IMG/VR virus record: IMGVR_UViG_2562617151_000007
Location: 1 to 17,695 of that record
Direction: 5' to 3' (one strand)
DNA from: a virus
Taxonomy: Duplodnaviria; Heunggongvirae; Uroviricota; Caudoviricetes
Length of the DNA: 17,695 nucleotides
Made by a program: the position numbers and the translations under genes
Part shown: piece by piece, positions 5,708-6,699 of the stretch
Position numbering within the stretch: the stretch's first letter is position 1
Layout of the letters: each line of letters begins with the position of its first letter
The notes under the pieces: generated by a model
The model's database searches: none
What the model saw: only the letters and a program-made list of their open reading frames with translations
What the model was told of the DNA's origin: nothing

Positions 5708-5962
5708 ATGGCTAGAGATGATCCGCACTTTAACTTCCGTATGCCTTTGGAAGTAAGAGAAAAATTGAAATTAAGAGCCGAGGCTAACGGAAGGTCAATG
5801 AACTCTGAGTTATTACAAATCGTTCAGGATGCACTATCAAAACCATCACCGATTACAGGATATCGCGACGAAGCTGAACGCTTGGCTGATCAGCAGGCTG
5901 AGCAGTTCAAGGCTATAGTGTTTGAGACACTTAAAAAGATTTATGAAAAGGATTTGAAATGA
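5708..5962 (+). CDS. mnt: Mnt repressor (ribbon-helix-helix)
   Basis: 84-aa ORF MARDDPHFNFRMPLEVREKLKLRAEANGRSMNSELLQIVQDALSKPSP..., recalled as P22 Mnt-like. Divergent from arc. GGAG RBS. Confidence 0.9.
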   Translation: MARDDPHFNFRMPLEVREKLKLRAEANGRSMNSELLQIVQDALSKPSPITGYRDEAERLADQQAEQFKAIVFETLKKIYEKDLK

Positions 5963-6294
5963 GATTTCTATCACTGTTCTTGTTAGCAGTTGTCTCTTCT
6001 TCCAGTGCTGAGCTGCGCGAGCTTCAAACGGGTAATGACCTTCTTTACAACATTCAACAAGGTAAAAAGGGTGATGATTTTTCATCGCTTTACATTACTG
6101 GATATTTGCGCGGAGTAACTGACTCATTGATACTAATTGGTTCTCTATGTCCTCCTGATGGCGTTGACATGTATCAATACACCGATATCGTTGAGAAATA
6201 TCTAAACAAAAACCCAGAATCAAGAAATGAGAGTGCAGTTATACTAACCGCCCTAGCAGTAGGAAAAACATTTCCGTGCAAAAAGAATCAATAA
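5959..6294 (+). CDS. Small secreted protein (Sec signal peptide), unknown function, translationally coupled to mnt
   Basis: 111-aa ORF whose ATG overlaps the mnt stop (ATGA). N-terminus MRFLSLFLLAVVSSSSA-ELR has n/h/c signal-peptide structure; two Cys in the mature part. Visibly AT-rich. Confidence 0.6.
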   Translation: MRFLSLFLLAVVSSSSAELRELQTGNDLLYNIQQGKKGDDFSSLYITGYLRGVTDSLILIGSLCPPDGVDMYQYTDIVEKYLNKNPESRNESAVILTALAVGKTFPCKKNQ

Positions 6295-6309
6295 CAATAA
6301 GGGCTTAAA

Positions 6310-6699
6310 ATGAAATTGATTATAGCAATGGCTTTCCTTGTCTTCTCGTTTTCTGTCTCAGCAGAGTGCTGGGTCGTTGGAGATATGCACGGAATAAGCT
6401 ATTCAGAACGAAATAATTTTCAACCGGAAGAAGATGGTTTTAGTGGAACATTCATCATTAAGACAAACGGTGAAGATGCCAGTATCACATATTCTGGGAC
6501 GGATGCGGGCGGCATGGCTTACAAAGCATTGTCTAAAAACTCCATCATTGGAATCGGCGCGAATGGCGAAACTCAACGAGTTATCGACTCATGGGTAATA
6601 CATCCTAATGGAACAGTTTTAATGTCGAAAACCATTTCTGGTTATGGGAATATGGATTCAACCAAAGCTTTTGTTGGAAAAGTAAAAAGAAAATGTTAA
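6310..6699 (+). CDS. Small secreted protein (Sec signal peptide), unknown function
   Basis: 129-aa ORF 15 nt after the previous gene, with RBS AAGGG. N-terminus MKLIIAMAFLVFSFSVSA-EC is a signal peptide. Convergent with the ejection-protein gene. Confidence 0.6.
   Translation: MKLIIAMAFLVFSFSVSAECWVVGDMHGISYSERNNFQPEEDGFSGTFIIKTNGEDASITYSGTDAGGMAYKALSKNSIIGIGANGETQRVIDSWVIHPNGTVLMSKTISGYGNMDSTKAFVGKVKRKC

Follow-up and report, generated by a model that had tools for sequence, protein, structure and literature searches.

Among the small phage proteins that are exported by the Sec pathway and act in the periplasm on an incoming phage are T4 Spackle and P1 Sim, and Spackle inhibits a peptidoglycan hydrolase, the gp5 tail lysozyme, in which it is mechanistically like Rap1a. 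Rap1a ("Tai4a") and Agrobacterium Tai4 are immunity proteins of type VI secretion systems (T6SS) directed against peptidoglycan DL-endopeptidases of the Tae4 family (Ssp1/Tae4), and the published description of Rap1a gives it a 26-residue signal sequence and a disulfide, Cys78-Cys122, that ties a loop past the long helix to the C-terminal region. On the phage side, SieA of phage P22 is a prophage-expressed, envelope-located inner-membrane protein of 164 amino acids with its own promoter, and Hex of phage 434, encoded past cI in the PRM operon, underlies an old phenotype, the exclusion of P22 by Salmonella lysogenic for lambda-imm434, which is lost in a hex mutant (cited in PMC3564112). Here we compare with these systems a two-gene cassette at positions 5959-6699 of a 17,695-nucleotide stretch of viral DNA (IMG/VR record IMGVR_UViG_2562617151_000007, Caudoviricetes), the whole of which is referred to below as the window. 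The two open reading frames, ORF1 (111 amino acids) and ORF2 (129 amino acids), directly follow mnt, the maintenance repressor gene of a P22-type immI region; by sequence, ORF1 is a clear member of the Rap1a/Tai4a family of T6SS immunity proteins and ORF2 is a homologue of 434 Hex. Our reading, to which we give an even chance of being right, is that they constitute independent periplasmic protective cargo expressed from the mnt promoter Pmnt, with ORF1 acting against Tae4-class amidases and ORF2 against some other incoming agent, possibly a phage. So understood, the cassette is a variant of orphan immunity genes and prophage exclusion cargo, and no new kind of system. The family label of ORF1 already stands in RefSeq; what is new is that ORF1 is phage cargo translationally coupled to mnt.

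Both genes lie on the plus strand, ORF1 at 5959-6294 and ORF2 at 6310-6699, where an initial annotation made from the sequence alone had placed them. The ATG of ORF1 (5959-5961) overlaps the TGA of mnt (5960-5962) as ATGA, ORF1 and ORF2 are separated by 15 nt, and ribosome-binding sites, AGGA-type and AAGGG, stand 6-8 nt 5' of the two ATGs. Because of the overlap and the short gap, co-transcription of both genes with mnt from Pmnt is to be expected; the wiring to the mnt operon proposed in the initial annotation was borne out, as was the AT-richness of the two genes, which is mild (GC content 39.0% for ORF1 and 39.7% for ORF2, against 43.1% for the window). Relative to homologues of 66-78% amino acid identity, ORF1 has a nonsynonymous divergence (dN) of 0.15-0.23 with synonymous sites saturated, and for ORF2 the ratio of nonsynonymous to synonymous divergence (dN/dS) is 0.22-0.30, values indicating that both are real genes under purifying selection.

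The two proteins have canonical N-terminal Sec-type leaders, as had been annotated, the call being rule-based (n-, h- and c-region and -3/-1 rules). In ORF1 the leader MRFLSLFLLAVVSSSSA (codons 5959-6009) precedes ELR, with the cleavage context SSA/E, the stroke marking the predicted site; in ORF2 the leader MKLIIAMAFLVFSFSVSA (codons 6310-6363) precedes ECW, with the context VSA/E. Each has one basic residue and a 10-residue hydrophobic core whose mean Kyte-Doolittle value is 3.0-3.2, and positions -3 and -1 are occupied by small residues. Neither leader contains a lipobox, and neither mature protein (codons 6010-6291 and 6364-6696) contains a 19-residue window resembling a transmembrane segment. 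The annotated pair of cysteines per mature part is likewise there, exactly two in each: C64 and C107 in ORF1, C20 and C129 in ORF2. The case for export is strengthened by the conservation of the leader design across both protein families, and no homology to a housekeeping or structural phage protein, which would have pointed elsewhere, was found. RefSeq/PGAP starts ORF2 at the internal Met26 (104 amino acids, WP_002432306.1; window positions 6310-6384 are affected), and since this start drops the leader and the invariant Cys20-Trp21, ORF2 looks cytoplasmic and unremarkable in databases. NCBIfam gave no match for ORF1 or ORF2, and PADLOC none for ORF1, ORF2 or Hex.

The initial annotation recognised no family for either protein, a statement that did not survive profile searches. 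ORF1 matches Pfam PF18602 (Rap1a) with 55.3 bits (gathering score 27.7) over profile positions 1-90 of 90, and the RefSeq protein identical to it is labelled "Rap1a/Tai family immunity protein". With Rap1a and Tai4 it shares a length of about 110 amino acids, a predicted cleavable signal sequence (by sequence rule only) and a cysteine pair at the same positions: Cys64, in a loop past helix 40-59, and the C-terminal Cys107 are invariant among homologues, align with the cysteines of Tai4 and are 43 residues apart, versus 44 in Rap1a. The predicted fold, from a model built on seven close sequences, is the compact all-alpha fold of Rap1a. Unlike Rap1a and Tai4, ORF1 is neither beside an effector gene nor in a T6SS cluster, being coupled instead to a prophage maintenance repressor; its neighbours are mnt and a Hex-like gene, and likewise in all homologous loci. 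As no effector, T6SS or toxin gene is found near ORF1 or its close homologues, ORF1 would be an orphan immunity gene, and a search of 185,579 species genomes for effector-linked chromosomal relatives returned one locus only, an ORF1+ORF2 pair in Silvania. Toxin-less immunity genes on acquired DNA have been described, as in an immunity islet of S. Typhi with a Tai4-like gene (PMC7400221); ORF1 is likewise without a toxin, but its carrier is a P22-like phage and the gene lies inside the immI operon. We found no paper describing an immunity gene built into a phage immI operon, and no literature on phage-borne Rap1a/Tai4 or on this cassette.

Bona fide secreted Rap1a-family proteins are also encoded by the unrelated phages DSL-LC04 (L106:3432-3758; Pfam 63.8 bits), where the gene is mislabelled "type VI amidase", and Dartukuta (L107:2336-2698; Pfam 49.7 bits). 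DNA polymerase I, primase and helicase are all encoded by DSL-LC04 itself, and its first 50 kb show no integrase; Rap1a carried by a phage may therefore serve some purpose in the lytic cycle.

ORF2, for its part, falls with 434 Hex into phrog_2651 (at 2.3e-60 and 1.4e-58, respectively), a family in which the relatives of Hex include Sf6 gp38 and homologues in HK633, HK446 and Sf101. The two proteins align end to end in BLASTP (29% identity, E 8e-15), tblastn of ORF2 against the phage collection found Hex at 3e-7, and a profile search recovers Hex-type proteins. They have in common the leader, the A/xCW motif and the C-terminal cysteine design, and these features run through the family, which comprises 138 clusters at 50% identity, nearly all of 125-135 amino acids. 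A basic and hydrophobic leader and the A/xCW motif are present in all 71 aligned members, exactly two cysteines in the mature part of 70 of the 71, and the second cysteine within the final six residues of 66. The AlphaFold2 model of ORF2 (mean predicted local distance difference test score, pLDDT, 90.7) is an up-and-down beta-barrel of nine strands with the two cysteines on the first and the last of them, so that the model portrays a barrel stapled by a predicted Cys20-Cys129 disulfide. Comparison of this model with PDB structures found no specific structural relative, searches of PDB sequences with ORF2 alone or with the 71-sequence profile gave nothing meaningful, and Pfam has no match for ORF2, the 71 family members yielding faint hits to Lipocalin_4 only (three members, best E 0.003). 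Three identities considered for ORF2 were rejected: a lysozyme inhibitor of the MliC/PliC type, as there is no profile match and the eight-stranded inhibitor barrel is not specifically matched; a small outer-membrane barrel (NspA/OmpW/Lom-like), on length, strand lengths and C-terminus; and a lipoprotein, for want of a lipobox. The family has one studied member and no agreed function.

Genes of the Hex family sit at lysogeny-control loci, past mnt, past cI or convergent with cI. Those of phage 434 and of Yersinia prophages come directly past a 434-type cI with the same ATGA overlap, so that the geometry of a repressor gene joined by ATGA to a gene for a secreted protein recurs at cI-hex. Hex, like ORF2, follows a repressor that maintains lysogeny and should therefore be expressed in lysogens; it differs in following cI in the PRM operon, whereas ORF2 follows mnt and ORF1 in immI. 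Other members, in Aeromonas and Cedecea, are found in islands adjoining integrases. A third subtype (L010-L033, for example L018:2956-3342), 44-49% identical to ORF2, is convergent with a gene for a 238-amino-acid cI, and since the L018 gene lies behind a non-coding region of about 400 bp, this is presumably a moron that has a promoter to itself. One 38-kb P22-like IMG/VR contig, 2547132077_000001 (L065, L099), carries both a Hex434-type gene past cI and ORF1+ORF2 past mnt; its two Hex-family paralogues are about 30% identical and, being present in one phage genome, are probably not redundant.

The homology to Hex led us back to the published account of that protein, in which Hex was taken as an ORF of 158 amino acids (Shkilnyj et al., PMC3564112). 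This corresponds to a 134-amino-acid ORF (L003:2501-2905) extended by 24 upstream codons that overlap cI. Overexpression of full-length Hex was toxic and stopped growth, and the stable, active fragment, "sHex", starts at Glu43 (PMC3564112); its cloned sequence begins GAATGCTGG, encoding E-C-W. Glu43 is Glu19 of the 134-amino-acid ORF and comes right after ...TSANS, that is, at the predicted signal-peptidase site (TSANS/ECW), and PMC3564112 mentions no signal peptide, periplasm or membrane. In the same work, deletion of Hex raised spontaneous induction 30-fold in a recA-dependent manner, and in vitro the Hex fragment kept the repressors of 434 and P22 from being cleaved. The family-wide leader and cysteine pair suggest, at the level of sequence, that Hex is periplasmic, and because the leader is conserved and the N-terminus of sHex coincides with the predicted cleavage site, cytoplasmic action becomes doubtful for the family, ORF2 included. 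The published in vitro result is not disproved by this argument. Exclusion of P22 is the only phenotype of the family that is compatible with a periplasmic location.

How closely the two genes belong together was judged from their distribution. Close homologues of ORF1 all lie directly past mnt in P22-like prophages, in E. coli, two Serratia, Silvania and 15 IMG/VR contigs, and ORF2 follows in every one of the 15 IMG/VR loci. The pair occurs in two diverged versions, with ORF1/ORF2 identities of 100%/100% and 67%/48%, among loci in which Ant, Mnt and gp16 range from 29% to 100% identity; the pair being constant while its flanks vary, it travels together through mosaic exchange. Among 5426 complete E. 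coli genomes ORF1 is present in 26 and ORF2 in 147, ORF2 being without ORF1 in about 120. The co-occurrence at the mnt/gene 16 junction that the initial annotation proposed to survey is therefore complete in the IMG/VR loci and not obligate: ORF1 and ORF2 are usually adjacent but separable modules. In a Serratia fonticola prophage the ORF2 slot is taken by a second Rap1a-family gene (L005:8356-8715), 30% identical to the first, an arrangement that recalls the two Tae4-type effectors of Serratia, Ssp1 and Ssp2, and in another Serratia prophage Rap1a stands alone with the ORF2 slot empty. In the commoner, O111:H8-type arrangement ORF2 starts with GTG, differs in its leader and is preceded by an upstream region of its own, and the ORF1 slot past mnt holds a gene on the opposite strand for a 139-amino-acid lipoprotein (L115:2916-3335, minus strand; lipobox LLSGC, phrog_6823, weak PEGA-domain match).

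The position itself is that of sieA, as had been annotated: in P22 the equivalent interval contains orf59a and sieA as well as the terminator of mnt, and the location reported for SieA genes is between genes 16 and 9 (PMC10883804). ORF1 and ORF2 share with SieA this slot between gene 16 and immI/gene 9; they differ from it in that their leader is the sole membrane-like segment. Homology to SieA was rejected, as BLASTP gave nothing better than E 1.5 and neither protein has an inner-membrane topology. The mnt/gene 16 slot repeatedly holds envelope-targeted cargo, be it SieA, a lipoprotein, Rap1a or a Hex-like protein, and is for this reason a promising site in which to look for periplasmic defence proteins that are new.

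In P22, the binding of Mnt to its operator switches Pant off and favours Pmnt, which makes Pmnt the lysogen-active promoter. On the reading that we favour, 5959-6699 would be a lysogenic-conversion ("moron") cassette in the immI region, with both genes on the Pmnt transcript, by which the antirepressor is kept off in lysogens, and translation of ORF1 coupled to that of mnt by the ATGA. Both products would be exported by Sec, shed a leader of 17-18 residues and acquire their fold, with a single disulfide apiece, in the periplasm. ORF1, a Rap1a/Tai4a immunity protein without its toxin, would form the dimer typical of its family and sterically block the active site of a Tae4-class (Ssp1-like) gamma-D-glutamyl-meso-diaminopimelate (gamma-D-Glu-mDAP) endopeptidase injected by the T6SS of a neighbouring bacterium, so that the cell wall of the lysogen survives. 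ORF2, an independent Hex-family module, would bind some other incoming periplasmic agent with a small barrel closed by Cys20-Cys129; a component of a superinfecting phage is the leading candidate, because P22 exclusion fits a periplasmic location. That the genes are real, their families, the predicted folds, the conserved leaders and cysteines, the layout of the operon and the distribution are what the analysis shows; export, the disulfides, expression from Pmnt and both targets are what we infer, and the lysogen would probably gain protection from outside attack rather than a new two-part exclusion machine.

Several observations weigh against this interpretation. ORF1 is just 26-27% identical to the characterised Rap1a and Tai4, immunity proteins of this type are reported to be highly specific, and the locus offers no effector, T6SS or toxin gene as a partner. 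The adjacency of ORF1 and ORF2 across diverged versions with swapped flanks means that they could work together. In the case of DSL-LC04, which encodes a DNA polymerase and shows no integrase in the 50 kb examined, protection of a lysogen against T6SS attack fails as an explanation for a Rap1a gene. Finally, the only biochemical study of a member of the ORF2 family gives Hex a cytoplasmic role (PMC3564112), and this published activity conflicts with the predicted export of ORF2. Taken at its word, it would have ORF2 remain in the cytoplasm and shield a LexA-like repressor from RecA-stimulated autocleavage, thereby stabilising lysogeny, an account that could draw on the recA-dependent, 30-fold rise in induction on deletion of Hex, on the protection of the 434 and P22 repressors in vitro (PMC3564112) and on the S24-type cI encoded at 10240-10956 of the window. 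We think it very improbable for ORF2, seeing that the Sec-type leader, the A/xCW site and the terminal cysteine pair are kept family-wide, that the active sHex fragment starts exactly at the predicted signal-peptidase site (E43 = E19) and that full-length Hex is toxic when overexpressed; moreover, ORF2 and Hex are just 29% identical, some members lie in islands with no adjacent repressor gene, and the ORF2 gene is coupled to immI and not to cI.

The initial annotation saw in the two genes an entry- or injection-blocking exclusion pair. The homology of ORF2 to the "heterologous exclusion" gene hex lends this idea some real support for ORF2, and the slot is the envelope-cargo slot that sieA also uses; the known activity of the ORF1 family is the neutralising of T6SS amidases, not the blocking of phage entry, and neither protein resembles SieA. 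In its developed form, the idea would make ORF1 and ORF2 one periplasmic superinfection-exclusion system, in which the Rap1a fold has been co-opted, in the manner of Spackle, against a phage hydrolase or ejection component and the Hex barrel blocks another step of entry. Linkage maintained despite exchange of the flanks (two diverged versions, 15 of 15 IMG/VR loci and Silvania) and the secreted Rap1a-family proteins of other phages, one of them apparently non-temperate, are in keeping with it; yet ORF2 is alone in about 120 E. coli genomes, Rap1a is alone or doubled in Serratia, PADLOC has no match, bacterial T6SS peptidoglycan amidases are the only targets against which the Rap1a family has been shown to act, and in the structure search with ORF1 Spackle (6x6o) matched no better than many unrelated helical proteins, all of which leads us to regard a single system as unlikely. 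A more sweeping proposal, in which the Pmnt operon is a periplasmic shield against other phages, with a Spackle-like Rap1a and with the whole Hex family, 434 Hex included, acting as periplasmic exclusion proteins and not as modulators of RecA or repressor, strikes us as decidedly unlikely; were it true, immunity proteins of the T6SS and exclusion factors of phages could stand in for one another within a single toolkit of periplasmic defence. Conversely, both proteins might be orphan immunity proteins against two bacterial toxins acting in the periplasm, T6SS effectors or bacteriocins, in an interbacterial defence islet acquired by the phage. The Rap1a/Tai4a kinship of ORF1 accords with this, and the second slot of S. 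fonticola, in holding a Rap1a-family gene, makes the two slots look functionally equivalent. Against it, no Hex-family gene lies beside a toxin or T6SS gene in about 80 viral loci or in Yersinia, Aeromonas and Cedecea, so that an origin in a cognate toxin-immunity pair is unsupported, ORF2 has no Pfam match to MliC or to any immunity family, and its match to PhiA is no better than that to generic barrels; we rate two immunity proteins as quite improbable.

The surroundings of the cassette are those of a complete P22-type immI region, complete because the sar antisense RNA is present as well (5389-5455, plus strand; Rfam RF00262, 65.6 bits, gathering score 43). It lies between ant (4509-5387, minus strand) and arc, whose 53-residue form at 5456-5617 (minus strand; Pfam Arc 104 bits) has the 162 nt that RefSeq annotates at an identical locus, the mechanical ORF reaching 5680. 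The control region (5631-5685), delimited by promoter scan and comparison with P22, contains the divergent, overlapping promoters and the Mnt and Arc operators. A consensus scan finds both promoters, Pant (5685-5657, minus strand) and Pmnt (5652-5680, plus strand), with matches at 11/12 and 10/12, and the operators can be read in the sequence, that of Mnt as the palindrome TAGGTCCACGGTGGACCTA (5633-5651) and that of Arc at 5660-5680. Over about 105 bp the Pant/Pmnt/Omnt/Oarc region shares 98% identity with the immI control region annotated in P22. The mnt gene itself (5708-5962, plus strand) matches Pfam Arc with 97.6 bits and Repressor_Mnt with 44.4 bits, and its product is 81% identical to P22 Mnt. 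On the far side, the boundary of the cargo slot is formed by a gene for a gene 16-type ejection protein of 613 amino acids (6724-8565, minus strand), which converges on ORF2 with 24 nt between them; its Serratia counterpart, 66% identical, carries Pfam Phage_P22_gp16, and the counterpart in Emek is annotated as an injection protein. No convincing intrinsic terminator was found after ORF2 (6700-6830), where there are a weak consensus match inside gene 16 and a folding z of -0.99; transcription from Pmnt may continue, in antisense, into the 3' end of gene 16 or may be ended by Rho.

Several complete E. coli chromosomes contain the segment 5700-6720 at 100% identity, and there it belongs to a prophage beside tRNA-Arg and intS, and the window represents a P22-like E. 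coli prophage that is integrated at argW, deleted and defective. Genes 20 and 7 and the head, lysis, nin and P genes are missing from it, and the 5' end of gene 16 abuts, at about 8566-8730, a truncated replication gene O (8713-9378), a joint spanned by no complete E. coli genome in the collection. The gene loss and the unspanned joint make the window prophage a deletion derivative in which immI, the cassette and cI survive, and because it is deleted, expression in this host context is assumed from the intact control region. Elsewhere in the window, a 122-amino-acid ORF (10976-11344, plus strand) starts 20 nt past the S24-type cI gene on the same strand; its product has many hydrophobic segments and belongs to phrog_6534, of unknown function. 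As it occupies the rexAB/hex position, it is another candidate for lysogen-expressed membrane cargo; a second Hex it is not, hhalign giving that match a probability of 0.2%. A hexapeptide-repeat acetyltransferase gene (1351-2022, plus strand) between int and the tailspike gene may be cargo for O-antigen modification, and the early-left region contains a gene for an HNH endonuclease with a sub-threshold AP2-domain match (12685-13212, plus strand).

If ORF1 acts as the other members of its family do, a common type of temperate phage would provide its host with ready-made resistance to type VI attack by a rival bacterium, and the repressor circuit that silences the prophage would also turn this resistance on. 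Lysogeny would then be tied directly to bacterial warfare in the gut, which would help to explain why the cassette is retained in deleted, non-inducible prophages. For ORF2 and its relatives, the family-wide signal peptide is a simple and testable reason to revisit the function of 434 Hex, and with it the heterologous exclusion of P22, an old and unexplained phenotype, becomes experimentally approachable.

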